63,799 nucleotides of DNA, filler included, from Basidiobolus ranarum (GCA_040143965.1; 18 parts of 18 records of this genome joined end to end with filler, not necessarily neighbours in it); one strand, 5' to 3'; counted from the first letter of the whole stretch, positions 4,783 to 63,799 are shown. Notes: generated by a model from the sequence alone, not told the origin. Numbers and translations: made by a program.

Positions 4783-7024
4783 CCCTAACAGAAATTTGAG
4801 GATTTTTATTGTAGCAAAACCATCACAATTTCAATCCATTTGGGATTGGCAGTTTACTTACCATCATGAAATAGTCAAGTTAGACTTGATTTTAATCAAT
4901 TTTTTCAGTTTCAGGAGTGAAATTTCAAGATCTCACAGAATAGTTGCACATGATTGGCTACAATCTCAGACAACTATGGATCAACATATGTGCAGAAAAG
5001 GTAACTTAAATTTTACAGATTTACCACTTGAATCCTAATTTGTCACTCTTGAAATCCCTAGTCTTTTTGATATATTCTCCTGAATATTTTTGTAGAGTTC
5101 TTCATAACCAAGGTTTAGCTCATACCCAATACAAGTTTGTATCAATATCTCCATCAAAGCCCACCATTGTATTGACATTGCTGAATCAACATTCTTCCAG
5201 CTATCTGGCAGATACCGTGCAATATTGTGCCACTCTGTATTCAGTTCTTCCCAGATATCTGCACAGTCAACACCAGACTGAATGTTAAGTTTGATGTTCT
5301 TCTTCTGAAGCCACTTTGTGCATGTTTGCACTGTGTTCTTCCCTCCATACTTCTGAAAATACTGCAAAAACACTTTGACTATTATTGTACATCCTTATAG
5401 TGTGACACTACTGAGGGTGCTTAGTGGTGTTTGTGTGGCTTTTTACTTGCCTTTAAGTTTGGAGCTAATTTCAACACTTTGAAAAGTACCAGTTGAGGTT
5501 GGAAAGCTATGAGTTTAATTTGCTGGTGTTTTGGCTTGTTGAGAGGTGCCAGGTGTTGGATAAACTTGCAAATTTAGCACTCTTTCAACTGGTGTACACA
5601 GTTCCATGGTGAAATTAGGCTTTTTTGCCAGTATATCTGACTCTGGAAATGCAGATCTTGATAATGGTGTGAAGAATTTGGTAAGTGGGACAGTAGAGCC
5701 TAAGCTCACTGGCTCCTTTGCTTTTCCTTTGGGTTTACTAACTTCCTGCTCCCTGACTACTTCTTTAGCTGCTTTTCTTTCCTTTCCAAGTCAATAACTG
5801 TGTATATTTTTGAGAAGTTTTGTGAATAGGCCTATACTAGCCTATTGCCATTTGCTTGCAAAAACCAAGGATAAGCCACATGAAGTAAGTCAAGAATCTT
5901 CAGAGTAATATATGATTTTTGGTTTTTCCACAATTGGCTCAAATCAAGGTGATTTTGGGCAAGAATCCGCACAGTATCCAAAATGTTAAACTACTCACAT
6001 GTGCCCAAGCAATTTTTGGATGTTGTGTAGGCTTAATAGTGCAACACATACTCTGCTCTGCAAGATTATCATGGTGACATTCATATGTATGGTGTGGGAT
6101 TGATTGAAATCCCATATAAGAATGGACAGAGGGAGTAGCATGTAGCTGTAGCTCAAGTAGAGCATTATGAAGGTCTTGTATCACTGTTGAGTGACTCTCT
6201 AAATTTTGACTAGTTGCTTCTGAATACTGCATTAATTGCAATATTGCAGCGGTGTTACTTGTCATGGCCTGTATAGCAACTTTGTAGTTTCTATGTATGA
6301 TTGCATACAAATTCTTATGGTATTCTGCCTGCAAGTCCCTTGTTGTAATTATTCTCACCAAATTTTCTACAGAGGGTTGCTCAATAGTTGACAAAGTAGC
6401 CATTTTGGAAGTTGATGGTCTTGATGGTGTTTTGGGTGAACTTTTCTTAACTATTGATTTACTACGTTATTGGGGGATTACAATCTTTTCACTTGCACTA
6501 TTGCTGGAAAGGAACACATCTGGTAAATTGATTTATGCTTCATCATTATTTAAGTTAGTTTCCAGCATGTTAATGCCTTCCAAATTGAATAGTGGATTGC
6601 TAGACTGCTCATCAATTAAGTCCTTGTTTCTTGCTGGTTTTTGTTCCTTTTGTGCCAGCATGCTTTGGCTTGGAAGCCAATTTTGATTTAGATTTTGAAT
6701 GCTTTTTGATTGGCATTGAAATTTTCAGATGGTAAACTTGGTGTAATGAAATTGCTTTGACACAGCTTATAAAAAACCAAAATTGCCATGAATTACCACA
6801 AATGTCTTGTAAATCCCCTGATGACTCATCTGTGACACCATCTCAGAATCAGCTGATGATATTGATGGGCTATACCTGAATTACCACCCTTATGTAGGAG
6901 GTGTTTTTTTTTCTACAATATCCTTCTCATGCTGCAACACAAACATTCAAAGATGCCCTGCTATTATTGCCACATATTGTTGTGCTATCAAAGCCAGAGG
7001 CTTTGGAGAAAAAATACTCACAAG
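4783..7024 (-). mobile_element. CMC/CACTA-like transposon left part: TIR, complete decayed ORF2, divergent intergenic region, transposase start
   Basis: Begins CCCTAACAGAAA at 4783. ORF2 remnants span 5035-6716 on the minus strand. On the plus strand, MLQHKHSKMPCYYCH begins near 6929. Same layout as 60363-62160. Confidence 0.88.
5035..6716 (-). pseudogene. Transposon accessory ORF2 (about 560 aa reconstructed), function unknown
   Basis: Stitching ORFs 5939-6403, 5515-5709 and 5035-5373 gives MPIKK...MATLxTIEQPSVENL...DIWEELNTEWHNIA...LGISRVTN. The same frame recurs in about 10 other copies. Confidence 0.8.
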
Positions 7025-7124
7025 NNNNNNNNNNNNNNNNNNNNNNNNNNNNNNNNNNNNNNNNNNNNTTAATTAATTAANNNNNNNNNNNNNNNNNNNN
7101 NNNNNNNNNNNNNNNNNNNNNNNN

Positions 7125-7440
7125 CAAAGATGGTGATAAAGAGCAAGAGTTGGAAGAAGACCAAGATATTCAAAATAGTAAAACAAAAAAGCCTCTCAAA
7201 AAAGATGAAGATAGCACTATCAAAAAACGTACCAGGAAACCTAAAGCCGAAATATCTGCTGATGATGAGGCACCAAAGAAGCGTGGAAGAAAAACGAAAG
7301 TTGTAGCGTCCGATGCGGATAGTGAAGAAGAACTAGCACAATCCAAAAAACCTAAGAGCAGAAAGCCTAAGAGTGCACCCCCCAAAGGTCGTGCTCGTAA
7401 AGCTGTGATTCCTAGCAATTCAGGAAGTGAGTCCGAATAG
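7125..7440 (+). CDS. 3' end of a host gene; Lys/Glu/Ser-rich low-complexity tail with NLS-like PKKRGRK, probably a nuclear protein
   Basis: Open frame from contig start to TAG at 7440; normal CpG content; no diagnostic domain. Confidence 0.6.
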
Positions 7441-7896
7441 GCTACTTAAGCTAGAAGGTAGGAACTAATAATGATTTCGCATCATGTACTGTTGCATTTG
7501 AAGTATATGGTTTTTAACTTGACTTATTAGCTTCATGATTTCGAATGAGTATGATATTTATGTCACAATGCTTATTTTATGCTGATTTTTAGTTTATGTT
7601 TCAAATAAATTGCAGTGAAGAAAGTTGCTATCTGTGGAAAGGAATTGTGACTACTCCTATCAGTACTTGATGATTAAATAATGCCGAGTCTCATGTTGTG
7701 ACATGATATTTTAAAAAATTAGCAAAATGTGAAGCTAGAATTATCATGATTTTTGCTATTTGTGTTCAGGAAAGCAGGATTATTAATCAGATCACAATCT
7801 CCAAAGGTACTTGATTAAACACCAAAGTGTCAACCAAAGCGTATTGTAGACAGTTCTTAGAATAACCATTTTTTAGTTTAATTCTACTCTTTACTG

Positions 7897-10684: not shown

Positions 10685-11690
10685 AACCCTAAAACAGTTT
10701 GCAGACTCCGGAAAATACTCTATGGCTTAAAACAATCTCCAAGAGCTTGGAATAGCAAGTTAGATGCCTTTTTGGAAACACTCAAATTCCAAAAGTGTAA
10801 TGCTGACTATAGTATTGACATCAGGCCAGATAAGAAAAACCCAGCTCTATTAGCCTTATATGTAGATGACCTTATTATAGTAATCAATGACTTAAAGACT
10901 TTGGAGAAAGCCAAATCCAGCTTATCTGCCAAATTCAAAATGACTGATCTTGGAGAACTAATGTACTATCTTGGAATCCAAATTAAGATAGATAGAACTG
11001 TTGAAATTAGCATTGCCTAAACACCAATATAGTCATATATAGCTTAGTACTTAGTTATCTTATAACTCACTAAGATATTACCAATTATTCTCAATTGGAA
11101 TTTACTTGGAAAATTTTTACCAACTTAGAAGTTCTCAGATATATAGATTTTTCAAACTTGTGCTAGAAGCCCCAAACTTTGCACACAAATTCCTGGGACC
11201 TTCCTTAACATATTCTACATGTTAATCTGTTTACATCATGACAAAACTATAAATGTCAACTCTCTACTCAATAAATCAATAAGTGAAAACCACCAATTCC
11301 TCTAATTCTCCAAACCACTTCCAACAGGCTCCCAAATACTATAACAAGAGCTACTAAAACAACAACTTTAAATCAGTCCAAGTATATCCTAGATATACTA
11401 AAGAAGTTTAAAATGGAAGAATGTAATCCAGTATCTACCCCAAAGGAGGCATATCTTAACTTGATAATCAAAGTTGCATCAAACTAGCTAAGAATCCCAT
11501 GTTTCATAATAGAAACAAACATATAGTTATTAAGCATCACTTCATTAGAGAGACTATAGAGAATAAGTTTATTGACTTAACTTATTGTTTGACTGAAGAC
11601 ATGCTTGCTGATACATTTACCAAACCATTAGCTAGACAGAAATTTGAGAAGTTTAGACCTTTATTAGGATTAGTTTATATGACTATATAG
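10685..11690 (+). mobile_element. Copia RT and RNase H remnant (internally deleted)
   Basis: LYGLKQSPRAWN, LALYVDDLII, DNQSCIKLAKNPMFHNRNKHI and DMLADTFTKPL. Confidence 0.93.
10999..11346 (+). mobile_element. Solo LTR, family A (348 bp), inserted in an RT of its own family
   Basis: TG...CA ends, flanked by AGAAC/AGAGC (5-bp TSD with one mismatch); highly similar to the 3' LTR at 11702-12047. Confidence 0.9.
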
Positions 11691-11692
11691 TT

Positions 11693-12047
11693 GAGGGAGA
11701 GTGTTAAAATCAGCATTGCCTAAACATCTATATAGTTATATATAGCTTAGTACTTTGTTATCTTATAATTCACAAAGATATTATCCATTATTATCAATTG
11801 GAATTTACTTGGAATATTCTTACCAATTTAGAGGTTCTCAGATATATAGATTTTGCAAGCTTGTGTTGAAGCTCCAAACTTTGCACACATGTTCCTGGGA
11901 CCTTCCTTAACACATTCTACTTGCTAATTTGCTTACATCTTGAACCAACTAAAAATGTCAACTTTCTACTCAATAAATCAATAAGTGAAAATCACCAATT
12001 CCTCTGATTCTCCAAACCACTTCCAACAGGCCCCAAATACTTCAACA
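11693..12047 (+). mobile_element. Polypurine tract plus 3' LTR (family A)
   Basis: GAGGGAGAG at 11693-11701, directly after the RNase H stop, then TGTTAAAA...TTCAACA. Confidence 0.9.
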
Positions 12048-12530
12048 ACTTAATGGCAATTAAAAGGCCACCCAAACACTGCAAAGCACACTGATTAGTC
12101 TCACACTACAAGGATGTATAAAGATAGTACAAGTGCTTGAAGAGTATCTTCAAAAGTATAAAGGGAAAATCACAGTGCAAGTATGCATAAAGTGGCTTCA
12201 GAAGGAGAACATTCAACTAGACATTTAGTCTGGTGTCAACCTTGCAGATATCCTGTAGGAACTTAATAGAGAGTGGCATAATATTGCAGGGTATCCACCA
12301 GATAGCTGGAAGAATGTTGATTCAGCAATATTTATACCATGGTGGGCTTTGATGGAGAAATTGATACAAACTTGTGTTAATTATGAATTAAAACTTGGGT
12401 ATGAAGAACTCTATTAAAATATTCAGGAGAATACATCAAAGAAAATAGGGATTTCTAAGGTGACTAATTAGCATCCAAGTGGTAATTGTGTAAAATTTGA
12501 GTTATGTTTTTGCACATGCATTCATCCATA
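12048..12530 (+). mobile_element. CMC transposon ORF2 C-terminal fragment
   Basis: Homologous to 29570-30050. Confidence 0.82.
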
Positions 12531-12534
12531 GTTT

Positions 12535-13681: not shown

Positions 13682-14141
13682 CTATGCCCAATCACAAAGG
13701 ATGGAATCGTTGAAAGTCTTGCATACAGTACCTGCTGCGCAAATGTTCTCAACCAGCTTGCCGTAAACGCAAATGGTAAACTTTTGTGAAACTCCCGAAT
13801 CAACACACTTGTAAGCACCTTCGGTACAACCAGAGCTGGTGGGCTTGGGAACATTGGAAGAGGTAACTGAAGTAGCAGTAAAGGTAGCGGTACGAGTTAC
13901 TGTAACAGTGGTAGGAATACAGGAGAAAGAAGAAATGGCGACGGTGGAGTGGTATGAGGTATGTTCGTGAGAAATAGTAGTGGCTTCGGTAGGCTTGTGG
14001 GAGTCAGTAGTGACTTCGGTTGGCTTGTGGGAGTCAGTAGTGGCTTCAGTAGGCTTGTGGGAGTCAGTAGTGACTTCAGTGGGCTTGTGGGAGTCAGTAG
14101 TGGCTTCAGTAGGCTTGTGTGAGTCAGTAGTAACTTCAGTG
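13682..14141 (-). CDS. C-terminus of a secreted-type protein: Thr-rich 10-aa repeats plus CBM19-like chitin-binding domain (probably a GH18 chitinase)
   Basis: Minus-strand translation (TEV/ATTDSHKP)n...CTEGAYKCVDSGVSQKFTICVYGKLVENICAAGTVCKTFNDSILCDWA*. The six-Cys spacing fits CBM19. The catalytic domain is not in this contig. Confidence 0.75.
13976..14141. repeat. 30-bp coding tandem repeat, at least 5 units, cut by the contig end
   Basis: Unit AGTAGTG(G/A)CTTC(A/G)GT(A/T/G)GGCTTGTGGGAGTC. Confidence 0.95.
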
Positions 14142-14562
14142 NNNNNNNNNNNNNNNNNNNNNNNNNNNNNNNNNNNNNNNNNNNNTTAATTAATTAANNN
14201 NNNNNNNNNNNNNNNNNNNNNNNNNNNNNNNNNNNNNNNNNTGAATGTGCAATAATGTCTAAAAGTACTTTTCTTAAACATACCACATAAGTAAAATAAA
14301 CTGTTTCCAAAATGGTAAATAACATCATGCCGTATAGTGCCCAATCATGCCAATTTGTGCTGGCACACTTTTTAGCTGGCCTGATCTGGCTCAATAAAAT
14401 GGAACAAGTCTAGTGTTATGATGGTGATCTTGTATGGTAAGTTATTGCTATTCTTATTTCGTATGCATTATTTAATTTCCAACAATTTTCACAAAAAACT
14501 AATTTTTGAATGACAAATTCCTGGGTTTACTACTATCAAAATTCAAGTTAATTTACATGCTT

Positions 14563-16540
14563 TTATTTAAATATTTTAGGATTTAATTCCAGCCATAATG
14601 ACAATCAAAAAAAACAGGAATTTTGTCTTTTGTCTCTACATCTGCACATACTTGACTGAACTGACATCACTCAGCAACATCAATATGCTTTACCAGCAAA
14701 CTAATGGTGGAAAAATTGCTAAAAATCTGAAATTTTGAAGTGCACTGACACTTGGTGAATAGCTCACTCTTGTTACCATTCACAATGAGAACAAGCTCTT
14801 GGATATTAGGAAATTTTGATATAGAATTCAGCCATAATATCCCAACTTGCAGTCAGCAAAAGTCCTGCCACAAGTTGATAAGTCAGTTCTCATATATATT
14901 ACCCAATGGCTGAAGCAATACTACTACATATCTCAATCTATTTTGCCAGAAAGTCTGTCTTGCAGCTTTCCTAGAACTAACCTCAGATTACTGCACAAAC
15001 AAATTGGTAAAAATATTGAGGTACTTACTCTGAGTCTATGAATTGGGTTTTGTTACTATAATTATGCTGCAACAATAGAAAAACCTGTGCAGACATCAAA
15101 AAGAGCCCTGTGTTGGAAGGTTAACATAGTCTGGAGTCTTGTTAACCCATTGCATTACATCTATTGCTGATATTTCTGATATATTGTCAAACAGATTAGC
15201 ATATGGCAATACTGACAATTTCATATAGAGCATCTTTTCACCATAGGTGTGCTCCCTTTGGAACTCCCAGAATGTACAGCAAAGGCCTGTAATCCCTAAG
15301 CATTGTGAAAGATGCAGCAGGGAATGTATTAAATACCAGCATATATTCAGTGTATCTTCTTTAAACCTGTAATAAAGTTTCTCATGATCATTTACAAAAT
15401 CTTCACACAGTTGCTGTATCTGCCTGAGATCTGCCAATATAAATTGATGCCATAAAAGCATATTAACAATTTCTACAAACAACTTAAAATGTTGCCAATA
15501 TTAGTCAGGCAGAATTCTTTTCCAGATTCCCCTTGAATATATTCAAATCCAAAACTTCCAGTCTTTGCATTTGAAAAAGCACCTAGATAGTGAATATTGA
15601 TGAGAGTTTTGGTAACATATGATGGTATCTTCAAATTTTCAAGCATTTGCCCAATCCATTCAAGCTTTGATTGTATCTTGAATGGCACACATTAGATCAA
15701 ATCTTCCACTATATAGCTGAGTAAGAAGTTTTGGAATATTGTTGAATAGTAACTGCATAGTGCCTAATGGGAAGCTCCGGTTCCAGCTGATCCCCTTTAG
15801 CAACATAATCTTAGACTTACAGCCAATCCCAAGTTTGATATTGGACTGACCATTTGGTGAATTGATATAAGTGAGCATGTTGAAATGTGACCTTGCTCTT
15901 GACAGTAAAATCATGGAGTTCAGTGATGTATTTTCATAGTAGTAATGCATATGCCTGGTAGAGTAAACTCCATTGCTTTGACAAAATCTACTATGTAAGA
16001 AAACCGTTAAACACCTGGTTTCTAAGATATGATTGAACTCTCCACTTGTGAATATTCGAAGCTGCTTCCCTTGCCATAAGTGCTGTGAGTGGACCAATGT
16101 TTGCCAATAAAAAAGAGTTGGTAAAAAACTGTTGTCTTCTTCTTCATCTTCTGATATACTAACATCAGTACTGGAATAATCAAGATCAACATCTGGCAGC
16201 ATGTCCTCTAAGTTGTCTGGACTTACTGGTCTGACCAAAGTTGCACTTTTACCTGCATCATCCTGGTCATATAACTGTGCTAACTCCATTGTATCATCTC
16301 TTTCAGCAGTATTACAAAAAGTTTGAGATAAAGCACAGCCAGTGGACTCATTGGGCTGAACTAAAGTTGATTTTGAGCACTTTTTACTATTTATTTTTGC
16401 CTGGCTTTATGCTGCAGGTGGCTTTATATGGTTATCATGCTTGTGATTATTTTTTTTCCATGAAGTCTCTGGCTTTGATAGCTCAAGAGTTTTGACAATA
16501 TTAGCAAGGCTTCTTTGCACATTTGTGATGTGACACAAGA
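14563..16540 (-). mobile_element. CMC/CACTA-like transposase remnant with internal deletion near 15990
   Basis: MELAQLYDQDD, RFCQSNG, SFPLGTMQLLFNN, HEKLYYRFKED..C.YLIHSLLHL and FWEFQRE. Confidence 0.88.
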
Positions 16541-16748
16541 AGGATATTATAGTAAAAAGAACTCCTACTGAGTAAGACCGGTATTTAAAGTACATCCCAT
16601 TGTTATCATCAGCTGATTCTGAGATGGTGTCACAAAGGAGTCATCAGGGTGTTTACAAGATATTTATTGTGATGGATAGCAATTGTTGTCTATTATAAGC
16701 TGTTTCAGAGCAATTTCTTTACAACAGTTTGACCATCTGAAAATTTCA

Positions 16749-17215
16749 GTGCCGTTCCCAAAGTCTTCAATATTTAAATCAAATTTGGCTTCTAACCAAA
16801 AGCCTGCTGGCACAAAAGGAAAAAAACTATCAAGAACACAAGACTTGATTGATGAGCAGTATGGCAATCCACTATTCACCTTGGCAGGCAATACTAAGCT
16901 GGAAACTAACTCAAGTAATATTGAAGCATTGATCAATTTATCAGATGTGTTCATTGCTTGCTATAGTCAAAGGGATGAGATTACAATCCCCCAACTACAG
17001 AGTAAATCCGTAGTTGAGCAAAGCTCCACAGAAGCACCAATAAGACCAATGACTTTCAAAATGCCTACTTTGCCAACTATTGAACATCTCACCATGGTCA
17101 ATTTGGATACAATTTTTGCAACTAGGGAATCTCAGGCAGCACACCATACTGATTTTTATGTGATCAAAAGTAAAAACTAAAAAGTTGCCATACTGTCCAT
17201 TACAAGTAATAACTA
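16749..17215 (+). mobile_element. CMC transposon ORF2 N-terminal part, divergent from the transposase
   Basis: LASNQKPAGTKGKK...EITIPQLQSKSVVEQSST...MPTLPTIE; head-to-head with the transposase. Confidence 0.85.
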
Positions 17216-17940: not shown

Positions 17941-18127
17941 CTTTTCATCCTTACCCTTACCAGAACATCTATACCCTTGTCAAATCAATGGAGTTTATTC
18001 TAACAGGCATATGCATTACTCCTGTCCAAATACAACACCAAACTTCATGATTTTACCATCAAGAGCCCAGTCAGATATCAATATGATCACTAATATCAAT
18101 TCACCAAATAGTCAGTCTAACATCATA

Positions 18128-18389
18128 TTATTCTCAATTGGAATTTACTTAGAATATTTTTACCAACTTAGAAGTTCTCAGATATATAGACTTTTCTAAC
18201 TTGTGCTAGAAGCCCCAAACTTTGCACACATGTTCCTGAGGCCTTGCTTGACACATTCTATATGTTAGTTTGCTTACATCTTGACAAAACTATAAATGTC
18301 AACTTTCTACTCAATAAATCAATAAGTGAAAACCACCAATTCCCCTAATTCTCCAAACCACTTCCAACAGGCTCCCAAATACTTTAACA
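18128..18389 (+). mobile_element. Truncated LTR, family A
   Basis: Matches 11085-11346. Confidence 0.85.
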
Positions 18390-18407: not shown

Positions 18408-18650
18408 TCCTAACAGAAATTTGGGGATGGTTATTGTAAGAAAACCATCACAATCTTAATCTATTTTGGGCTGACTGTTTATTTACCTTCATAAAATTGT
18501 CAAGTTGGACTTGATTTTAATTGTTACTTCAAATTCAGGAGTGAAATTCAATAATCTTGCAAAATAGCTGCTCATGATTGGCTACAATATCTGAAAACTT
18601 TGGTTCAACACATGTGTGAAGAATGTAACCCAAATTTTAAACATTTACAA
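18408..18650 (-). mobile_element. CMC transposon ORF2-side terminus
   Basis: TCCTAACAGAAATTTG, colinear with 4783-5030. Confidence 0.8.
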
Positions 18651-18659
18651 CTGCTCCAA

Positions 18660-19200: not shown

Positions 19201-21350
19201 ATTGAGAAATACTAGCGAACAAAAGATTACATTACATCGATGCAAAGTGAAGCGGCAGGCATTGTGATGTTAACTAAGAATTTGGAATCAGATAAAAGCT
19301 CCACAATAGTAAGCTTTTATCAAGAATGAATACATATCAATCAACGATCCTTGTAGTAAGTGACTTTTAAACCCGGTGTAGGATACATAAGATATCTAAG
19401 GAATTACTGGCTCTTCTCCCGATAGGAATTTTTCACTTTGGGGACAGCAGAATATCACGTTAGTGAAGAATATCATTATACATCAGTCATATATTTTTTC
19501 ACTTGGCAGTAAATGGACAATATATAGACCTTTCCGTACTAGTCAATCATTATACTTTCCTCTACCATAGTGGCGAGACTATATATTACCATGAAGAATG
19601 TAATGATTTTTATGAAACAGACCTGATAGGATGTGATTGGAGAGGCATTGACACTGACATATACTTGTCAATAAGCAGGCACGAGTTATCATAAGACTAC
19701 TTTCTTAGGAGGCGACAGAGTAGTAAGTCGATATGTAGAGTGTTTTGAATATGCTGAAAAGTGTTCTTTTTTAGTAGCCAACTGGTTTAAATGAGTATTG
19801 CATGTTCCGCATTTAAGTAGCATTCTCTGGATAATTGTAGAGGAAACACAAAATCTGTAGTTAAGTCTCCAACTATGGAGCAATCTATCTTGAATCAAAT
19901 CATCAAGAGCAATACAATACTTGAACTTTTTGAATGTGTGAACCTAGGGACAATGATACCTCAATACAAATACGTGTGATGTAAAACATTACACTTTGAT
20001 CTTACCATAGGCGACAGGTATATTTCTGATTGTAAAGCGAACTTTAATTAAGAATTAATAGACACGCAATAGATATGGATTAAGGGTGAGGATGAAATAT
20101 CTGATAGCTGCGTTTATTTAGCTACAGGTAGGAAACGACCATTGGTGTTCTAATATTGAGTAAAAGTAAATTCTTCAACAGGGCAAAACATCAGATTGGA
20201 GCAAAGCGGCAATATTCGTCCCTTACTCTACTTACCATAGTGTATATGAAGACGTCGGATGACCATGTTTATTGCAAAAATATAGGGAGCTTACATTGCG
20301 ATCTGATCAGCTTGAAATAAAGTATCAACTGCAAATATATTCATATGCATACGCATCAAGCATTTCTCAATAATTAAGATATAGACTTCCAACTTCGATC
20401 ACCAAGGAATGAGAACCCATATATAGGTCAGGCCCCTGCGTAAACTTTAGGCCCCCTTACTTCAACTGATTGCTTTTTAATGTTGAATCTCATTCTTTTT
20501 CACATAGTATGCCATTATCCCCATCACCTAGAAGCCTCGATCGATTGGTATAGTAAGGACTAGAAAAATTACTGGAGCAGCCAGAGAGTGAGTGACTTGG
20601 TTTTAACCCAAGCAGAGACAACGTCAGTTCCTGGAGCGTAACTGACTGATGAGATCGTATTGATGCATCAGCGTTTACATAGTAGCACAAGAACCACATT
20701 TTGGAAAACTAGCTATACAGTTAGATATATCTTTTGCACCTACAACCACTGTTTTGGATACTACAACCGACTACCGCCAATCCAAGCCGGCAGAAACTCG
20801 TGGATATATACATACGCAGTTACCCCTACGAAGCATATCTGCAATTGAGAAATAGATTACAAATACATTGGCTTCTTCAAAGATTTCATTTGCGACTTGA
20901 CCAAAGCACTCAAGGAAAGGCTATTTAGGATGAGAGCCTGACGGTGATATCTCTTCATGAAAATTACTTGATGATACTCTTCTGACAAGGGCTGTTAACA
21001 TATGCTTTTAGTATGCACTCGACTCCATGACGTCGTTGAGTTTGACACAGGTTTTACTTATTTAGCAATGCGAAAAAATAATTAATATTCGAAAACTGCC
21101 CACTTTTATGCATTCTACAATCCATGCTTAAAATATCTATCTCCTCGACCCTGACGGTTAGCTAGTCAACAGTTAGAGAGTCACTCAACAATGATACAAG
21201 ACCTTCAGAATGCTGTACTTGAGCTACAGCAACATGCTGCTCCCTCCGTCNNNNNNNNNNNNNNNNNNNNNNNNNNNNNNNNNNNNNNNNNNNNTTAATT
21301 AATTAANNNNNNNNNNNNNNNNNNNNNNNNNNNNNNNNNNNNNNNNNNNN

Positions 21351-30242: not shown

Positions 30243-30354
30243 GACTAGTAGTCCTAACTAGCTTATATTTGCTATATGAAGTAGATAGGAGTATAAAGAT
30301 AGAGATAACTAATATGTAAAAGACAATAAACTTTGAGACTTGTAGGGTGACCCT

Positions 30355-46193: not shown

Positions 46194-46943
46194 CAGGATT
46201 CATCTGAATTGAGAACAATTTTTGCCTAAGATATAGCCTATTAGCCAGACTTTTAGTCTTGTATAGTCCCTCAAGTATTTCCCAAGCATTTTGGATGTTT
46301 TTGGATGATTGTATGTGCCTCAATTGAGAATCTCTGAGATGTAGACAAAGTGTAGAGAGTGCTTTCTGCAGCTTCTTGTGAAAGGCAAGGATAGCTTCTG
46401 GTTGCCCCTTTGGCTCTATTTCTTCTCCTGTAACAAATCCCCAAAGGTCCCTGTCTTCTAGCACCATTTGCATCTTGAACTTCTAAAGGTGAGAGTTTTT
46501 ACCATCAAACTTCTCTCTGGATGCAAAAATGTTAGTAATAGTACTGGTAGACATCCCTTTAATAGCTAGCTTGGGGCTCATAATCTGATAAAAGTGTTTA
46601 GGGGATTTGGATGTGCTTTGGACAAGATTTGAATTTCTGAATTAGACACTTAAGTTTTGTTGAATTGCATATGTCCTATTTATAGTTTACTATGAAATAG
46701 GACTATTGGACATGCTTAGATCATAACAAACATGCCTGTTAAGCATGGGTGAAAATTTGAGGTGATTTGGAGAGGTTTTGAGAAAATAGTGAAAATTGGT
46801 AAAAGTGATCTAATTGATATTTCTATCATATAGAGCAACCCACATGAACACATGTTTTTGAATGACAGAATTGAGTGCTAAATAATCAGAATATGAACAA
46901 ACTAGCTACTAAGTGATGAGTTCCTATTTACTTAATTTCAACA
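46194..46943 (-). mobile_element. Copia 5' LTR-B (46586-46943), PBS and gag
   Basis: LTR, then GATTATGAGCCCC, then ATGTCTACC; MQMVLEDRDLW..., SLANRLYLRQKL. Confidence 0.9.
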
Positions 46944-47515: not shown

Positions 47516-47865
47516 AGTTGAAATATTGCAAATAGCCACTCATTATTTTGTAGTTAGTTGATTCATATTCCAAACACTTAGTGCCCAATAGTAACATTCA
47601 AAAATGAGTGTTTATTTTTCTCGTTGATAGATGTATGAATTAAGTCACTTCTACCAGTTTGTCTATTTTCTCAAATCTTCTACTAATTATTTCAAATTTT
47701 CCACTTGCTTGACAGGCATGTTTTTTATGATCTTAGCTTGCTCAATAGTCCTATTGCATGGTAAACAATAGATAGGACATATTGAGTTCAATAAATCACA
47801 AGTCCCCAATTCACAAAGCTAATGCTTGTCTAATATACTTCCAAATCCCATAAACACTTTTGTCC
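47516..47865 (+). mobile_element. Diverged LTR, family B-like
   Basis: Shares blocks AATAGC.ACTCATTATTT, ACAGGCATGTT and TAAACACTTTT with 2655-3006. Confidence 0.7.
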
Positions 47866-48094: not shown

Positions 48095-49134
48095 AACTCT
48101 CAGGTAGAGCACCATAATGATTTGAATGCAATCATAAGTAAAGACAACAAATTTGCTATACTGGCCATCACTAGCAATAACACTGCAATATTGCAATTAA
48201 TGCAGCATTCTGAAGCAACTGGTCAAAAGTTAAAGAGTCACTTAATAGTTATACAAGACTTTCAGAATGCTATACTTGAGCTACAGCAACAAGCAGCTCC
48301 CTCCGCGCATCCTTGTAGAGGATTTCAATCAATCTACATCACGCATATGAACATCACCATGACAATCTAGCAGAGCAGAATATGTGTTGGACCATAAAGC
48401 CTATACAGCAACCCAAAATTGCATGTGCACATGAAAGTAGAAATCTCATAGGAAAACCAGCTTGCCAAAAGACTCTGAATGTCAGAGCTGTCATCACTTG
48501 CTCTGATGAAGAGTGGTTTAGCATCTTGGAAACTCTGTAGAATCTTGGCCAAAATCACCTTGATTTAAGGCAATTTGAAAAAACTAAAAAGAGGTGTTAC
48601 TATGAAGGTTCTTGACTATTTTCATGTGGCTCATCGTGAGTATTTGCAAGCAAATGGCAATTGGCCTAATATAGGCCTACTCATGAAACATATAAAAAAT
48701 GAATGCAATTATTGACTTGGATAGAAAGAAAAGCAGCTAAAGAAGTACTTGAGGAGCTGGAAGTGAGTAAACCCAAGGGAACAGAAAAGGAGCCAGTGAG
48801 TTTAGGCTCTACTGTTGCACTCATCAGATTCTTCACACCATTACAAAGATCTGTATTTCCAGAGTCAAATTTACTGGCAAAAAGGCTGATTATGAAAATG
48901 AAACTAGGTACACCGTTTGGAAGAGTGATAAATTTGGAAGTTTGTGCAACACCTGGCATCTCTCAACAAGCCTAAACACCTGCAGATGAAACTGATGGCT
49001 CTCCAACATCAACTTGTACTTTTCAAAGTGTTGAAATCAGCCCCATACTTAAAGGCTAGCAAAAAGCCACACAAATACCATAAAGCACCCTCAGTAGTAT
49101 CACACTACAAGGACATATAAAATAGTAAAAGTGC
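48095..49134 (+). mobile_element. CMC ORF2 central fragment
   Basis: QVEHHNDLNAIISK...ERKAAKEVLEE...EPVSLGSTV. Confidence 0.86.
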
Positions 49135-49638
49135 TGTTGAAATTAGGTAAACAGCTACTCATTTTTTAGTAGTTAGTTTACTATTATTCTGATTATTTAG
49201 CACTCAATTCTGTCACTCAAAAATGTGCTTTTATTGCTCTATTTGAAGAAATATCAATTAGATCACTTTTACCAATATTCAATATTTTCTCAAAACTTCT
49301 CCAAATCATCTCAAATTTTTATCCATGCTTAACAGCCATGTTTGTTATGATCAAAGCATTTCCAATAGTTTTATTTCATAGTAAACTATAAAGAGGACAT
49401 ATTCAATTCAATAAAATGAAAGTGTCTAATCCACAAATCCAAATCTTGTCCAAATCACTTCCTTATCCCCTAAACACTTGTATTTGGTTATAAGCCCCAG
49501 GCTAGCTGTTAATGGAATGTCTACCAGTACTATTACCAATGCTTTTGCATCCATGGAGAAGTTTGATGATGTAGACTTTCACCTTTGGAAGTTCAAGATG
49601 CAAATGGTGCTAGAAGACAAGGACCTTTGGGGATTTGT
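49135..49638 (+). mobile_element. Copia 5' LTR-B (49135-49485), PBS (49486-49498) and gag start (49517)
   Basis: GGTTATAAGCCCC, then MSTSTITNAFASMEKFDDVDFHLWKFKMQMVLED. Confidence 0.9.
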
Positions 49639-49758: not shown

Positions 49759-50605
49759 ACAATCGAGCATCTATTCCCATTGCTTCTGCGGCTCCTTAAA
49801 GATGAAATCCCTGAGGTCCGATTGAATGCTATCTCCAAGCTTGATGGGGTCAACCGAGGTGAGTGGGATACCTTTACGTTGTAATTCCTTTAGAGAATCT
49901 AATTATTGCCTCAGTCATCGGGATCGAGTTAATTTCGCAATCTTTGTTGCCTGCTATCGTTGAATTGGCTGAAGATAAACAGTGGCGAGTTAGGTCGGCA
50001 ATTATTGAATATATGCCTCTGCTTGCTAGCCAGCTTGGAGAGTCATTTTTTGATGAAAAACTTGGGAATCTTTGTATGTCATGGTTAGGGGATCCAGTAT
50101 TTTCCATTCGTGAAGCAGCCACCATCAATTTGCGAAGACTCACTGAAGTATTCGGTGTTGAATGGGCCAAGAAAACCATTATTCCAAGAGTTCTCGCTAT
50201 GGGCTCAGATCAGAACTACATATATCGTATGACGACCATATTCTCCATCAACGTTAGTACCACTTCTCTAAATATGTCCAAACTGTCCCTTTCCCGTTAA
50301 AACCATATTTTATATAGACCATCGCTCAGGCCGTCTCAGCACAAATTATAAAGGAACTCTTTCTTCCTACCCTCTTGAAGCTAGCCACCGATCCTATCCC
50401 TAATATTAGGTTTAATGTTCCTAAATCCCTAGAGACATTGACACCAATCCTGAAGTCAGATCCGTCGACTGCATCAGTAGTCACCAATGAAATCCGTGCC
50501 GCTTTACTCCAATTATCCAACGATCAAGATTATGATGTGAAATACTTTACCCAACGCGCATTAGTTAAAGATAAAGAATCTTATAGCAATAGGTCACATT
50601 TATGA
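49759..50605 (+). CDS. TPD3: Protein phosphatase 2A scaffold (A) subunit, C-terminal HEAT repeats
   Basis: [68 protein letters not shown] and [13 protein letters not shown] introns. Confidence 0.96.
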
Positions 50606-50766: not shown

Positions 50767-51084
50767 TGTGGAGATTAACACAGCCTAAACACCTATATAG
50801 TCATATATAGCTTAGTATCTAGTTATCCTATATTGAACTATGATATTACCCATTATTCTCAATTGGAATTTACTTAGAGCTCTCAGATATATAGATTTTT
50901 CAAAGGAGCCACAAACTTTGCCAATATATTCCTGGGATATTCTTTAACACACTCTACATATTAGTTTGTTTACATCTTGACAAACCTATAAATGTCAACT
51001 GAATACTCAATAAATCATAAGTAAAAACCATCAACTTCTCTAATTCTCCAAATCACTTCTAACTGGCTTTCAAATACTTTAACA
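50767..51084 (+). mobile_element. LTR, family A (internally deleted)
   Basis: Matches 10999-11346; no TSD visible. Confidence 0.82.
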
Positions 51085-51183
51085 CAAACTACATGTTAGA
51101 AGCTAAATTTAGTAAATACTTCAATGTATGATATAATTCATACAATCATGTTGAGCAAGTAATAGGGCCTCAAAGTTAGTTAT

Positions 51184-52857
51184 TGTTAAAGTATTTGAGA
51201 GCCCATTGGAAGTGGTTTGGAGAATTAGAGATATTGGTAGTTTTCTCTTATTGATTTATTGAGCAGAATGTTGGCATTTATGGTTTTGTCAAGATATAGT
51301 CAAACTAACATGCAGAATGTGTTAAGGAAGGTCCCAGGAACATGTGTGCTAAGGTTGTGGCTTCTAGCGCTGGTTTGAAGAAATCTATATATCTGAGAAC
51401 TTTTAAGTTGGTGAAAATATTCCAAGTAAATTCCAATTGAGAATACTGGGTAATACTTTAGTGAAATATAAGATGACCAAGTCCTAAGCTATATATGACT
51501 ATATGGGTGATTAGGCAATGCCAATCTCAATACTCTCCCTCTGCTACATAGTCATATAAAGTCATCCTAAGCAAGATCTAAATTTCTCAAATTTCTGTCT
51601 AGATAATGGTTTGGTTAATATATCAGCAATCATGTCTTCTGTAGAACAATAAGTTGAATCTATAAACTTATTCTCTATAGTCTCTCTAATGAAGTGATTT
51701 ACAATATCTATATGTTTGCTTCTGTTATGAAACATGGGATTTTTAGCTATTTTGATACAACTTTGATTATCTTGAAATATTGTACTTGGTGAATTTTGAG
51801 AATAACTTAAATCAGTTAAGAGTTTTCTTGACCATGCTGCTTCTTTTGTTGCTTCATAGGCAGCCATGTATTCTGCTTCTGTTATTGAAAGTGATAAAGT
51901 ATTCGGGAGCCTGTTGGAAGTGGTTTGGAGAAAATAGAGAAATTGGTGGTTTTCCCTTATTGATTTATTTAGCTGAAAGTTGACATTTATAGTTTTGTCA
52001 AAAAGTAAGCATTTCACTGTGCTGAATGCGTCAAGAAAGAGCCTAGGAATATGTGTGCAAAGTTTGGGGCTTGTAGCACAAGCTTGAAAAATTTGTATAT
52101 CTAGGAACTTCCAAGTTGATATTTGAAGCAAATTCCAATGGAGAATAATCAGAAATATCTTAGTGAAATATACAATAACTAAATACTAAGCTATATATGA
52201 CTATATAGATGTTTATGCAATGCTAATTTCAACAGATATAGCTATAGTAAGTTGTTTCTTTGAATTCCAAGAAATAGCTTCATCATAGCAAAGAAATAAG
52301 TATGCTGTTGTAAATCTCCTGTCTTTAGTATCTCTTCCCAGTTTGTATCTGAAGATACCCATTGGATTAAAGTTTGATCAGAATATGTGTACTGTAAGCA
52401 CAGATCCACTTTATCTTTCAAATATATGAAAATCCACTAGACTGCCATAATTTGATCAGATCCATAAATTTGAAGATATTGGCACATAACTCCCACAGAA
52501 TATGCATTATCTGGCCATGTTCCAACCATGATATGTATCAAACTACCAATAAAGATTTGGTCAAGTTAAGATTAGTCTCCATTAGGGTAGATACTGGATT
52601 ACATTCTTCCATTTTAAACTTCTTTAGTATATCTAGGATATACTTAAACTGACTTAAAGTCATTGCTTTAGCAGTTCTTTCTATCATAGCTTGGATTCCA
52701 GAATAGTATATCAGTTCACCAAGATCAGTCATTTTGAATTTGGCAGATAGGCTGTATTTGCTTCTATCCAAAGTCTTTAAGTCATTGATTACTAAAATGA
52801 GGTCATCTACATATAAGGCTAATAAAACTGGGTTTGTCTTATCTGGCCTGAGATAGA
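51184..52857 (-). mobile_element. Copia RT, RNase H, PPT and 3' LTR-A (51184-51532), with a nested LTR-A at 51892-52234
   Basis: LALYVDDL, TEAEYMAA and DNQSCIKIAKNPMFHNRSKHID; PPT GAGGGAGAG; the nested LTR has imperfect GAAAG/GATAT flanks. Confidence 0.92.
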
Positions 52858-52918
52858 CCCTAACAAATATAAAATTGATTTCATCGAGATTGGATCCACC
52901 CTTCTGTAGCACTAAACC
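52858..52918 (-). mobile_element. Stub of the CMC transposase-side terminus inserted in copia RT
   Basis: CCCTAACAAATATAAAATTGATT...TTGGATCCACCCT is the reverse complement of about 37505-37565. Confidence 0.82.
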
Positions 52919-56822: not shown

Positions 56823-57778
56823 CGTTCATGGTGGAATATTGCAAAACATTGGTCGTGGCTATACTGATCTCACTGCTGCTCTCTGCGCTGTAGGTATTCA
56901 GGCAGAGGAACTTCAGATATGGAAAGAAGTTGATGGTATATTCACTGCCGATCCTCGCAAAGTTCCCAACGCGAGACTACTGAATATTATTACTCCCGAT
57001 GAGGCCGCTGAACTTACGTACTACGGTTCAGAGGTTATCCATCCATTTACCATGGATCAAGTTATTCATGCACGAATCCCTATTCGTATTAAAAATGTTC
57101 AAAACCCTGGTGGGAATGGTACTATTATCCTGCCTGAGGTTCATCAGAAAGGAAGCACCTCTCCTCATTCACCTGAAGTCTTACTTGAGAATGGATATTT
57201 ACCAGATCTTTCACGCAGACATCCTACAGCCATAACAATCAAGGAGGACATTTTTGTTTTGAATATCCGTTCTAACCGCAAATCCGTATCCCATGGCTTT
57301 TTTGCTAGGATTTTTGCTACTCTAGATCGTTATGGTATTGCTGTTGATGTGATCGCTACTAGTGAAGTTCATGTTTCTATGGCTTTAGGTACGAATACCT
57401 GTGAATTACACTTGGCAGGTGCCGTGAAAGAACTCACCCAAATCGGCTCGGTAGACATCATGAAGAATATGGCGATACTCAGTTTAGTTGGGAAGCAAAT
57501 GAGAAATATGGTTGGAATTGCTGGCGCTATGTTTACGAGCCTTGCGAAGTCAAATATCCTTTTTTACAATTCGCTCAATTTATTCAAGATGATGTGATAT
57601 TATACTTCTTTAACTCACCTCTCCACATATTAATATTGAGATGATTTCACAGGGTGCCTCGGAGATCAACATATCGTGTATTATCTCCAAGACACATGCT
57701 GATAATGCTCTTCGTGTCGTTCATGACAGTTTACTGGCGAACGTTGATTATAGTGAGTTAAATGGGAGTATTATTTAA
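56823..57778 (+). CDS. HOM3: Aspartate kinase, C-terminal kinase and ACT domains
   Basis: IGRGYTDLTAAL, ELQIWKEVDGIFTADPRKVP, EAAELTYYGSEVIHPFTM and TSEVHVSMA; after the intron, NINIEMISQGASEINISC. Confidence 0.97.
57554..57626 (+). other. U12-type (minor spliceosome) AT-AC intron, 73 nt, phase 1
   Basis: 5' splice site ATATCCTTT; branch point TTCTTTAAC at 57606-57614; 3' end CCAC. Excision restores LAKSNINIEMISQG in frame. Confidence 0.92.
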
Positions 57779-60362: not shown

Positions 60363-61143
60363 TGATGGCAGCTCTGACATTCAGAGTCTTTTGGTTTGCC
60401 GGTTTTCCTATGAGATTTCTACTTTCATGTGCCCAAGCAATTTTGGGTTGTTGTGTAGGCTTAATGGTCCAACTCATATTCTGCTCTGCTAGATTGTCAC
60501 GGTGACATTCATATGTATGGTGTGGGATTGATTGAGATCCTATATGAGAATGGATGGAGGGAGCAGCATGTTGCTGTAGCTCAAGTACAGCATTCTGAAG
60601 GTCTTGTATTGTTGTTGAGTGACTCTCTAACTGCTGAATAGTTGCTTCCAAATGCTACATTAATTGCAATATTGCATTGTTATTGCTTGTCATGGCCTGT
60701 ATAGCAACTTCATAGTTTTTACTTATGAATGCATACAAATTGTTATGGTGTTTTGCCTGTGAATCCCTTGCTGTAATAATTCTATCCAAATTTTCCACAG
60801 AGGGTTGTTCAATAGTGGGCAAAGTAGCCATTTTGGAAGTTGATGGTCTTGATAGTGTTTTGGTTGAACTTTGCTCAACTATTGATTTACTATGTAATTG
60901 GGGGATTACAATCTCTTCACAAGCACTATCACTGGAAAGGAACACATTGGGTAAATTGATCAATGCTTCATGATTACTTGAGTTAGTTTCTGGCATTTTA
61001 ATGCCTTCCTAAGTAGATAGTGTATCACTAGACTGCTCATCAATTAAGTCCTCTGTTCTTGCTGGTTTCTTTCCTTTCATGGCACCAGGCTTTGGCTTGG
61101 AAGCCAATTTTGATTTAGAATTTGAACACTTTTTGAATGGCAT
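60363..61143 (-). mobile_element. CMC ORF2 N-terminal half
   Basis: MPFKK.S.SKSKLASKPK...MPETNSSNHEALINLP...MATLPTIEQPSVENLDRII. Confidence 0.88.
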
Positions 61144-61354
61144 TGAAATTTTCATATGGTAAAATTGATGTAATGAAATTGCTTAGAAACAGCTTAAATA
61201 AACCAAAATTGCCATCCATCACTGGTAATATTGTATAAATCCCCCAATGACACATCTGTGACACCATCTCACAATCAGCTGATGATATCGATGGGCTTTA
61301 CCTAAAATACCACCCTTATTTAGGAGGTGTTCTGTTTCCTACAATATTCTTCTC
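61144..61354. promoter_or_regulatory. Putative bidirectional promoter between ORF2 and transposase
   Basis: About 210 bp between divergent ATGs. The core GTGACACCATCTCA.AATCAGCTGATGAT is conserved near 6835, 16610, 33000 and 61260. Confidence 0.5.
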
Positions 61355-62160
61355 ATGCTGCAACACAAACATTTAAAGAATCCCTGCTATAATTGTCATA
61401 AATTCTTCTGCTATGAAAGCCAGGGGCTTCATAGCAAAAATAATCACAAGCATGGTTGCTGTACAAAGCCTGGTGTAAAACAACAGTAATAAGAGCACCA
61501 AATCAACTTAAGTTTTGCTCATTGAGTCCACTGACTATACTTTGCCTCAAAGTTTTGGTAACACTGACAAAAGTCAAGATAACATGGAGTTACCACAGTT
61601 ATATGACAAGAATGATGTAGGTAGAAATGCAACTTTGGTCAAACCATTAAGTCCAGAAAACTTTAAGGACTTGCTGCTAGATACTAATATTGGTTATTCT
61701 AGTACCAATGGTAGTATATCGGAAGTTGAAGAAGAAGAAGATGGTTTTGTTATACACTCTTTGTTAATGGCTAACATTAGTCCACTCATAACACTTACTG
61801 TAAAGGAAGCAGCTTTCATTATTGAGGAGTGGAGAGTTCAATCCAATCTTAGCAACCAGGCGTTTATTAGTTTTTTTACACTTTTACCACAGGTGATTGG
61901 CAACTGTTGCTTGCCACAGACCTGGTACAAGTGGAAAACACTTGTCAATTGTATGACTTATAATACTTCAGTAAATAAACTACCTTCATGTCCAAATGGT
62001 TGTTTGACTTTCACTGGTGATCTAAAAAACCTGAAGTCATGTATGGTTTGCACACAATTGGCAATCACTGAATCAGATAAATATTGTTCATATTCAGTTT
62101 ACATACCATTGATTCCCTGTCTTAAAGTTTTTTTTAAATCACCCAAATATAGATCATCTT
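61355..62160 (+). mobile_element. CMC transposase N-terminal part
   Basis: PCYNCHKFFC..., MELPQLYD, CPNGCLTF..LKSCMVC and YIPLIPCLK. Confidence 0.88.
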
Positions 62161-62164
62161 CCAA

Positions 62165-63799
62165 AAGTGAGTTCATGCAATAAGAATATATTAACAATAT
62201 TGACAAATAACTGTTATTGTTGCCCACACTTATCATGCAGAAATCTTTTCAAAATTCCACTTAAATATATACAAATCCAATGTTCCAGTCTTTGCATTTG
62301 AATAAACACCTAGATGAGTGGATATTGATGGGAGTCCTGTTAAAATATGATGGTATCTTGACATTTTCAAGCATTTTCACAATCAATTCAAACTTTGATC
62401 CTATCTCAAATGGCTCATTCATATTAATTTTTCACTATATAGCTGAGTAAGTAGTGCTGGAATGTTTTGAACAGTAAGTGCATAGTGTCTAATTGGAAGC
62501 TCTGGCTCCAGCTGATCCCCTTTAGCAATATAATCTTAAGCTTACAGCTAATATCAAGTTTGATGTTGGACTGACTATTTGGTAAGTTGGTCTCCATGAT
62601 CATGTTGAAGTCTAACCTGGCACTTGACACTAAAATCATGGAGTTTAGTGTTGTATTTGGATAGTAGTAATGTGTATGCCTGTTAGAATAAACTCCATTG
62701 ATTTGACAAAATCTACTGCAAGATAGTGCATTGTGCCAGCAAAAACCTCAAGTTTACTGATGGCAGGAGTATCACCAATACATACAACAATATTAGCTTT
62801 AATAAAATATTCACCCATCTGAACCCCATTAGATAACCATTCAAATTCCGCAATCAAAGACTCCAAGAAGCTATCTATAAGCACTGGTGATTTAGGTCCA
62901 GATATGATGGATAGTTTCAAAATATTATGACTCTTATACCATTCAGAAGGAGGAAGATATATGTTGATTAAAATTGTTGGCTTGCAAGCCTTTCCAACGA
63001 TATATTTGTTTAGTGAGAAGCCATTCAGAGCCAAAGCAAATGCATGATGATATGTGTGCTCAAATAAACCTTGACTTTTCAGGTTCTGGAAGTGATATCC
63101 ATCAAGTATATTGCTAATATCATCAGCTTTATGGTTAGTACTTCAATATTGCATCAAGGATCTATATTTGGGTGATTGCATCAAAACTTTAAGACAGGGA
63201 ATCAATGGTATATAAGCCAAATATGAACAATATTTACCTAATTCAGTGATTGCCAATTGTGGGCAAACAGTACATGACTTCAGGTTTTTCAGATCACTGG
63301 TGAAGGCCAAACAACCAATTTGACATGAAGGTAGTTTAATTACTGAAGGATAATAAGTCATTAAATTAAAAAGTGTTTTCCACTTGTACCAGGTCTGTGG
63401 CAAGCAACAGTTGCCAATCAACTGTGGTAAAAGTATATGAAAACCAATAAACACCTGGTTGCTAAGATTGGATTGAACTCTGCCTCCTCAATAATCAAAG
63501 CTGCTTCCTTTACAGTAAGTGTTATGAGTGAAGTAATGTTTGCCAATAACAAAGAGTTTGTAACAAAACTGTCATCTTGTTCTTCAACTTCTGATATACT
63601 ACCATTGGTACTGGAATAACCAAGGTCAACATCTGGCAGCAAGTCCTCAAGGTTGTCTGGACTTACTGGTTTAAACAAAGTTGCATTTTGGCCTACATCA
63701 TTCTGGTCATATAACTGTGGTAACTCCATGGTATCATGACTTTTGGCAGTGTTACCAAAACTCTGAGGCAAACTACAGTCAGTGAACTCAATGGCCGAG
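62165..63799 (-). mobile_element. Second CMC transposase copy, inverted
   Basis: LNGFSL, LPPSEWYK, IISGPKSPVLIDSFLESLIAEF, IGDTPAISKL and TMHLLF. Confidence 0.9.

Follow-up and report, generated by a model that had tools for sequence, protein, structure and literature searches.

How much of a fragmented fungal assembly can be traced to one transposon, and to which superfamily that transposon belongs, are questions raised by a 63,799-nt stretch of Basidiobolus ranarum DNA (GCA_040143965.1), analysed at its full length and called the window below. An initial annotation had described in it a ~5-kb element of CMC/CACTA type with two divergent genes. Our analysis indicates that the copies in the window very probably represent one ~5.2-kb family of autonomous cut-and-paste DNA transposons of the CMC (CACTA/EnSpm-Mirage-Chapaev) superfamily, old and inactivated. 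CMC elements are known in fungi and little studied there. The window consists of 18 contigs (c01 to c18) of 3437-3463 bp each, in descending order, separated by spacers of the form N44-TTAATTAATTAA-N44, the core of which supplies stop codons in six frames. Because the contigs are ordered by size, those adjacent in the window are not genomic neighbours, and the window samples a fragmented assembly instead of representing one locus.

The rebuilt element and its ends

Comparison of all contigs against all with blastn revealed widespread shared sequence at 73-93% identity. A pseudo-reference was tiled from pieces of the window, growing stepwise from 4913 to 4986 to 5175 bp, and the majority of all aligned matching fragments, with CpG correction, gave a consensus of 5181 bp; a CpG-corrected consensus of this kind, here built from window copies, had been proposed in the initial annotation. 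Searches with the pseudo-reference (blastn) identified 26 element fragments, spread over 12 of the 18 contigs; with spacers set aside, they account for 20,929 of 62,099 bases (33.7%). The earlier view that fragments in about a dozen contigs assemble into one ~5-kb element is therefore upheld, as is, for this sample, its description as a high-copy family. Occupying a third of a random contig sample, the element is probably a main contributor to genome size and assembly fragmentation.

Along the consensus, a 13-bp terminal inverted repeat (TIR) is followed by 253 bp, a second open reading frame (ORF2) on the minus strand (2007 to 254), ~310 bp, the plus-strand transposase gene (2317, its first ATG, to 4892), 289 bp and the opposite TIR. 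This layout is close to the one first proposed (250 bp, 1.7 kb, 210 bp, 2.7 kb and 285 bp), including the two divergently oriented genes with a shared region between them. The copies are as follows.

c02a, 3564-3982 (+): final ~420 bp, with decayed right terminus TGTTACAG and the best-kept right subterminal motif cluster
c02b, 4783-7024 (+): left end with TIR CCCTAACAGAAAT at 4783-4795, running to consensus 2315 at the contig end; lacks ~70 bp (1213-1283)
c04, 12047-12534 (-): internal fragment, consensus 188-674
c05, 14413-17213 (-): consensus 5045-3463 joined to 2745-1543, with a 716-bp deletion
c06, fragment 1, 17977-18125 (+): consensus 3471-3619
c06, fragment 2, 18408-18652 (+): decayed left end TCCTAACAG
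c06, fragment 3, 21162-21250 (-): consensus 1417-1505
c07, 21616-22716 (+): consensus 3500-3762 joined to 4329-5152, with a 565-bp deletion; intact right terminus at 22716
c09a, 28456-30242 (-): consensus 1-1786, left terminus at 30242; ORF2 remnant on the window plus strand at 28457-29989
c09b, 30339-31904 (+): 5'-truncated at consensus 609; internal deletions 1277-1368 and 1612-2497
c10a, 32006-34574 (-): consensus 3129-2; deletion 1536-784, insert of 175 bp, left terminus decayed (34574)
c10b, 34990-35451 (+): consensus 13-479, eroded terminus
c11, 35554-37565 (+): consensus 2975-5181, with a 190-bp deletion (3179-3369); right TIR at 37553-37565
c13, 42649-43338 (-): left 687 bp, left terminus intact at 43338
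c14, 48098-49136 (-): internal ORF2 fragment, consensus 583-1626
c15, 52858-52902 (-): right terminus and only ~45-70 bp of the element, within a copia-type reverse transcriptase remnant
c18a, 60363-62155 (+): consensus 1227-3020, comprising the 5' part of ORF2 at 60364-61155 (-), the intergenic sequence and, at 61254-62155, the N-terminus of the transposase
c18b, 62156-63794 (-): consensus 4025-2384; the sole window copy with the 190 bp deleted in c11

The ORF2 region is physically tied to the right part of the element by c05. At 62155/62156 in c18, two element copies meet head-on, on opposite strands, at consensus 3020 and 4025; either the genome is rearranged at this junction or the assembly is chimeric there.

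The terminal sequence CCCTAACA occurs six times in the window against 1.60 expected, and none of 100 shuffles gave six. Three sites lie on the ORF2 side (4783, 30242 and 43338) and three on the transposase side (22716, 37565 and 52858). At all six, homology among the copies ends at the first C and the 40 outer bases are mutually unrelated, so that the sharp homology stops reported earlier are recovered at the same coordinates with unrelated flanks. Going inward, the three ORF2-side ends are identical (CCCTAACAGAAATTTGAGGATT...), and the three transposase-side ends read CCCTAACAAA[A/T]..., two of them being CCCTAACAAAWATAAAATT and that of c07 having a short deletion. When the terminal 80 bases were searched with short words, three decayed ends were added, on the left at 34574 (-) and 18408 (+) and on the right at 3982 (-). 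The TIRs, CCCTAACAGAAAT and CCCTAACAAAAAT, agree at 12 of 13 positions left versus right; they are short, as had been described, and measure 13 bp rather than the ~8-12 bp then given. The terminal hexamer CCCTAA is equal to one telomere-type repeat unit, and a full-text literature search for the 8-mer terminus returned nothing related among the matches listed.

Left flanks finish in TA, TC, TC, AT and CT (TA in one of five) and right flanks start with AA, TG, TC and TT (TA in none of four). Three element ends adjoin a long terminal repeat (LTR) or copia family. For the end in c15, an uninterrupted paralogous copia copy is present in c04, in which similarity ceases 6 nt short of the terminus; the opposite flank is absent from the window.

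The transposase

The Pfam scan covered eight window ORFs, six of them in the element, and ten further pieces translated with X at stops. The ORF at 62645-63142 (-), in c18b, matches Transposase_21 (PF02992) with E 2.2e-7 and a score of 30.8 bits (cutoff 28.6), which was the family search suggested by the initial annotation; the ten pieces with X at stops gave no Pfam match at E <= 0.1. In a word-indexed search of 5.8 billion proteins, the sole protein returned among 210 candidates was P0003, an intact protein of 698 aa that is 79% identical to this ORF and sits on a 5233-bp record, near the reconstructed element size. P0003 scores 60.3 bits for Transposase_21 and 40.4 bits for DUF1258 (cutoff 33.1, E 3.1e-10), and no Pfam family beyond PF02992 and PF06869 was matched at E <= 0.1. 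Transposase_21 is assigned to CACTA/En-Spm and DUF1258 to Mirage in the relevant passages of PMC3985635.

When P0003 was used as a query, 19 proteins were found among 8000 candidates scored, all but P0003 itself 25-34% identical. Among its relatives, those with names (26-31% identity) belong to the Tnp2 family and come from Rhizoctonia and Ceratobasidium, and a red alga supplies one relative. A scan of metagenomes with P0003 gave 588 pattern-matching stretches, one of which encodes a relative (L001, 26% identity); no ORF2 homologue was found in the L001 stretch (best tblastn E 0.75).

These scores bear on whether the family belongs to EnSpm/CACTA proper. It could instead form a separate CMCT lineage, Mirage-like or new, with CCC..GGG termini and its own accessory gene, since P0003 exceeds the cutoffs of both Transposase_21 and DUF1258, the closest named proteins are just 26-31% identical, and the termini are neither CACTA nor CA..TG. 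We consider this somewhat unlikely. P0003 scores 20 bits higher for Transposase_21 than for DUF1258, and the aligned relatives match Transposase_21 in 17 of 17 cases versus DUF1258 in two of 17. With regard to Mirage itself, P0003 passes the DUF1258 cutoff, yet with a score below its own for Transposase_21, and Mirage is known from animals, mostly nematodes.

The assignment of the family to the CMC/CACTA type, made earlier from motifs, is supported by the two Transposase_21 matches and by the motifs themselves. All of those listed in the initial annotation (LDGF, GPKxP, GDxPA, CxFC, MH and FxMER) are found in P0003 and in window copies. In P0003 they are LDGF259, GPKSP302, GDTPA343, CRFC363 (363-366), MH441, HSLLH585 (585-589) and FPMER606. 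The predicted aspartate-aspartate-glutamate (DDE) triad is D260 (in LDGF), D344 (in GDTPA) and E609 (in FPMER), and CRFC and HSLLH represent the C(2)C and H(3)H motifs of the CMC group. Window copies retain the following.

c11 (+): LALDGF 35724-35741, IGDTPA 35786-35803, CCRFC 35846-35860, GTMHL 36076-36090, FWEFPMEH 36567-36590
c05 (-): HSLLH 15312-15326, FWEFQRE 15252-15272, GTMQL 15750-15764
c18b (-): LALNGF 63017-63034 (first D replaced by N), GPKSP 62885-62899, IGDTPA 62762-62779

An AlphaFold model of P0003, built from a 17-sequence alignment, has a mean predicted local distance difference test score (pLDDT) of 61.6, mostly 75-94 in the core, and a predicted template-modelling score (pTM) of 0.64. 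In a Foldseek comparison with the PDB, this model had 45 matches with E of 0.001 or less (best E 3.4e-8); the matches listed from that set are all RAG1, amphioxus RAG-like or Helicoverpa Transib transposase structures, with template-modelling (TM) scores of 0.24-0.47 and 8-13% identity. At the sequence level P0003 has no match among PDB chains at E <= 1. The nearest solved folds to the modelled core are thus those of RAG1, ProtoRAG and Transib transposase, and the likeness is structural only; as modelled, a RAG1/Transib-like fold would be the one expected for the CMC-Transib-RAG1 group. By analogy with these enzymes, the transposase may recognise the TIRs and excise and reinsert the element through a RAG1/Transib-like RNase-H core.

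The initial annotation reported no obvious introns. The transposase gene contains one canonical intron, GTAAGT...YAG, of 58-59 nt, in all three copies that cover the stretch (c05, c07 and c11), with the pattern GTAAGTACC...(CTGAC-like)...TCTAG.

c11, 36811-36868 (+): transposase intron, 58 nt, GTAAGT...TTGAC...CTAG
c07, 21976-22034 (+): equivalent intron
c05, 14971-15028 (-): equivalent intron

After excision in silico, the upstream frame enters a conserved C-terminal stretch of ~130 codons in two of the three copies, with one stop each, and the third copy, c05, has an additional 1-nt deletion. Since the frame continues once the intron is removed, the predicted transposase gene comprises ~830 codons with one short intron. 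P0003 ends at residue 698, its C-terminus diverging from the consensus at the intron site, and looks like a gene call extended into the intron. An element model with ends, two genes, an intron and subterminal motifs would help repeat masking and gene calling.

ORF2 and the subterminal motifs

The consensus ORF2 initially comprised three open pieces. The first two share a frame, interrupted by one stop, and the frame shift ahead of the third is removed by one added T, which is present in three of the six covering copies (c04, c10 and c13); in c02 an additional base sits within a few positions of it. With the frame restored in this way, ORF2 is read as one uninterrupted ORF of ~585 codons without an intron. 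Its product would begin with a basic N-terminus, followed by a coiled coil and a conserved helical domain, which a low-complexity linker would join to a C-terminal domain.

A HMMER scan of 1.84 billion representative proteins with a 259-residue piece (28457-29233, two X) gave six matches at E <= 0.001. P0004, P0006 and P0007 are fragments of the same family, 72-82% identical, and P0005 (299 aa, 35%, E 4.5e-31) and P0008 (243 aa, 37%, E 2.2e-15) are distant homologues. The remaining match, P0009, was rejected as spurious, being a tandem-repeat protein with ten short matched stretches. The alignment has a conserved block after the coiled coil, ...IAWA.E.R.L.GKP.NQKTL... ...PGVT...FH..YPGF.QANGNWA.IGLF...KNVR.Y. 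Used as a query, P0005 recovered only itself among 744 candidates. Judged from these alignments, ORF2 encodes a real protein family with a very narrow distribution in current databases, and it adds an uncharacterised family tied to a CMC transposase.

Four window pieces of ORF2 (P0001, 28457-29233, 29301-29852 and 29621-29989) match no Pfam family at E <= 0.1, and P0005 and P0008 have sub-threshold coiled-coil matches only. The Pfam scan gave no match of ORF2 to the TnpA-type families Transposase_24 and Transposase_23 (PF03004 and PF03017), which are mapped to CMC in the relevant part of PMC5751038. An ORF2 profile searched against the PDB gave a best E of 0.22, and the AlphaFold model (mean pLDDT 54.7, pTM 0.25) is confident for one long helix, the coiled coil, with no fold assigned. 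In the ESM Atlas, P0005 scored 0.86-0.87 to unnamed Mucoromycota clusters and the C-terminal piece of ORF2 0.89 to RelA_SpoT clusters with low recognition (1731); these values are below 0.9 and serve as leads only. Literature on CACTA elements with an oppositely oriented ORF2 consisted, among the matches listed, of plant or general papers only.

Subterminal motifs offer a possible substrate for the ORF2 product. The initial annotation had seen no evident subterminal repeat arrays, and this has to be revised, as clusters of a 7-bp ACCGTCA-like motif lie near both ends. Counted from the left end, the CpG-corrected consensus has ACCGTCA or a near variant of it at positions 36, 77 and 88; its last 150 bp on the right contain four direct ACCGTCA-like copies, spaced 11-12 bp, and inverted copies as well. 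The two clearest clusters in window copies are the following.

c02a, right end (+): direct copies at 3834, 3845, 3856 and 3867 (span 3834-3873, 11-bp spacing); inverted copies at 3907 and 3918
c02b, left end, 4818-4880 (+): ACCATCA at 4819 and 4860, inverted ACTGCCA at 4847, all of them decayed ACCGTCA forms

Without CpG correction, seven of 11 matches to ACC[GA]TCA|AC[CT]GTCA in the 5181 bp fall in the terminal 2x160 bp (binomial p 9e-7, a value that overstates the case because the pattern was picked after viewing the data). The terminal regions hold four CCGTCA where 0.116 would be expected, and none of 1000 shuffles gave four. Counts in the terminal 160 bp of individual copies are three (c02 left), zero (c09 left), two (c13 left), two (c11 right), six (c02 right) and three (c07 right). 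The motif holds a CpG, so that decayed copies read ACCATCA or ACTGTCA, and it was therefore probably overlooked at first reading.

By analogy with TnpA of En/Spm, the ORF2 product might be an accessory factor that binds the subterminal motifs and pairs the ends via its coiled coil. ORF2 could also be a passenger, a captured or lineage-specific gene comparable to the TET/JBP or kinase genes of other fungal transposons, with no end binding. That explanation accords with the absence of any Pfam match at E <= 0.1 (PF03004 and PF03017 included), of a PDB sequence match below E 0.2 and of a confident fold outside the coiled coil, and also with the frequent presence of extra genes in fungal DNA transposons, sometimes in opposite orientation, as described in a section of PMC12730594. 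We nevertheless think it unlikely. ORF2 has the same position and orientation in every window copy covering the region; six matches in 1.84 billion proteins, three of them from the same family and one apparently spurious, are unlike what a conserved host gene would give; and a basic N-terminus with a coiled coil would suit a DNA-binding, oligomerising accessory factor.

With ORF2 as a candidate accessory gene, the family resembles En/Spm (CACTA) in its best Pfam match, Transposase_21/Tnp2, in TIRs of ~13 bp, in short subterminal motifs and in a second element-encoded protein. It differs in that its termini are CCCTA... and not CACTA, and in that ORF2 is divergent and unrelated to the TnpA type at the Pfam level; the identity of P0003 to named Tnp2 proteins does not exceed 31%. 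In plant CACTA elements the genes are usually co-oriented or alternatively spliced. EnSpm of the Pucciniales and CNIRT6 of Cryptococcus neoformans are fungal CMC elements too and are set apart by their descriptions, which, in the portions of PMC12730594 and PMC12810828 that deal with them, give 5'-CAC..GTG-3' or CACTG ends and 3-bp target-site duplications (TSDs) where stated. ESTA, CNEST (with TA target duplications) and Plavaka are fungal CMCT members sharing the C(2)C and H(3-4)H motifs, according to a portion of PMC12730594. The TA duplication of ESTA and CNEST is not matched by the window family, with TA at one of five left and none of four right flanks, and the termini given for Plavaka in the same portion, TGT..ACA or CATCA..TGATG, differ from its own. 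The CCC..GGG termini, ORF2 and the identity of at most 31% to named proteins are family-level differences; new fungal CMC families are still being reported, as parts of PMC12810828 and PMC12730594 indicate.

Decay, weight of the evidence and neighbouring sequences

No intact gene is present among the window copies. Outside CpG, fragments diverge from the consensus by 1.3-15.4%, mostly 5-15%, and internal deletions are common (716 bp in c05, 565 bp in c07, 190 bp in c11, others in c09b and c10a). The ratio of observed to expected CpG is 0.00-0.15 in nine wholly repetitive contigs, 0.27-0.46 in three mixed contigs and 0.62-0.83 in six gene-bearing contigs. Among 562 inferred CpG cells, 453 are now TG or CA and 35 are still CG, a count that is partly circular, the CpGs having been inferred from TG/CA mixtures; the contig-level depletion is independent of that inference. 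Repeat-induced point mutation (RIP) was considered as an explanation for the decay. Outside CpG, C-to-T changes are not enriched at CpA (CA 199/764, CC 109/416, CT 111/572), and transitions are not dominant (779 vs 926 transversions); with neither a CpA-specific C-to-T excess nor a transition excess, RIP is not the cause. The near-total loss of CpG in repeats versus normal CpG in gene contigs points to CpG methylation of transposons and not to RIP, and we infer that methylation-driven deamination removed the CpGs and that the host methylates CpG in transposons. In the sequence of events that we propose, the host would have silenced the family by CpG methylation, deamination would have stripped nearly all CpGs, and the silenced copies would then have accrued stops, frameshifts and internal deletions; the deletions, by analogy with En/Spm and RAG1/Transib, may derive from interrupted gap repair following excision.

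A bolder extension of this proposal is that the family is a distinct fungal CMC lineage with CCC..GGG termini, in which an ORF2 product unrelated to TnpA binds methylatable ACCGTCA arrays at helical-turn spacing and methylation switches off end recognition. Taken as a whole, we regard it as unlikely.

The case for a single old CMC family has its weak points. Consensus depth is ~2-6 and falls to one at 3179-3369, where c18b is the only copy and c11 has its 190-bp deletion. No contig carries both ends, and the halves are joined via overlapping copies alike at 77-92%. The six intact ends read 5'-CCCTAACA..TGTTAGGG-3', with no CA..TG and no CACTA; CMCT lineages have 5'-CA..TG-3' termini mostly, not universally, according to the relevant passage of PMC12730594. 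Comparison of the 200-bp flanks of nine ends with all contigs gave no paired flank or empty paralogous site revealing a TSD. Transposase_21 is matched by one of 16 transposon-derived window pieces, 2 bits above the cutoff, and the catalytic-motif case, as read from sequence, leans for the most part on P0003, a relative that comes from a different record. To these are added the absence of a Pfam family and of an assigned fold for ORF2, the uneven motif count per copy, from zero (c09 left) to six (c02 right), and the partial circularity of the CpG-cell count.

The first of these points raise the question whether the ORF2 half and the transposase half are two repeats that are often adjacent or misassembled, the 5.2-kb unit being an artefact of tiling. 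The lack of a contig with both ends would agree with this, and the inverted junction in c18 and the rearranged fragments in several contigs show that chimeric joins exist in this assembly or genome. It is nonetheless highly improbable. The junction of the ORF2 and transposase starts is spanned collinearly by five independent copies (c02b, c18a, c10a, c05 and c09b). The halves are bridged by overlaps in consensus coordinates (c02, 1-2315; c18, 1227-3020; c10, 1836-3129; c05, 1543-2745 and 3463-5045; c11, 2975-5181), with c05 and c11 extending from the bridged region toward the right end. Moreover, the outer ends share 12 of 13 bases of an inverted repeat and the same subterminal motif, and the P0003 record, at 5233 bp, is near the rebuilt length.

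Besides the CMC family, the window contains other repeats. A second abundant repeat, of ~350 bp, has TG...CA ends (TGTTGAAATTAGC...TACTTTAACA) and occurs at 10999-11346, 11702-12047, 18127-18389, 22731-23084, 23719-24059, 50767-51092, 51177-51530 and 51890-52254. A polypurine run, GAGGGAGAG, lies ahead of it in at least two places, and the repeat resembles a retrotransposon LTR. Copies of it lie 14-18 bp from the CMC right end in c07 and the left end in c06. Remnants of copia-type reverse transcriptase (Pfam RVT_2) are present at 10685-10999 (+) and 52579-52861 (-), with E 3.6e-27 and 4.2e-18. The CMC right end at 52858 falls within the latter remnant, which indicates that the retrotransposon is the older of the two and that a CMC element inserted into it.

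A third repeat family of ~350 bp, with 74-86% identity, is present in c01 and c14 at 2654-3006, 46586-46943, 47517-47864 and 49134-49483. At the end of c04 there is a tandem array with a 30-bp unit (13976-14141, 5.5 copies, 91% matches). Three contigs with normal CpG carry ordinary host genes, which, like the 58-nt GTAAGT intron and the basidiomycete proteins among the relatives, suggest that the host is a fungus: c12 (39103-42483) has a BRE4/ArAE_2_N-type transporter gene at 41356-42483 (E 9.5e-12), c17 the C-terminal part of an aspartate kinase at 56824-57594 (AA_kinase E 9.7e-24, plus ACT), and c15 a fragment of a HEAT-repeat protein at 49863-50297.

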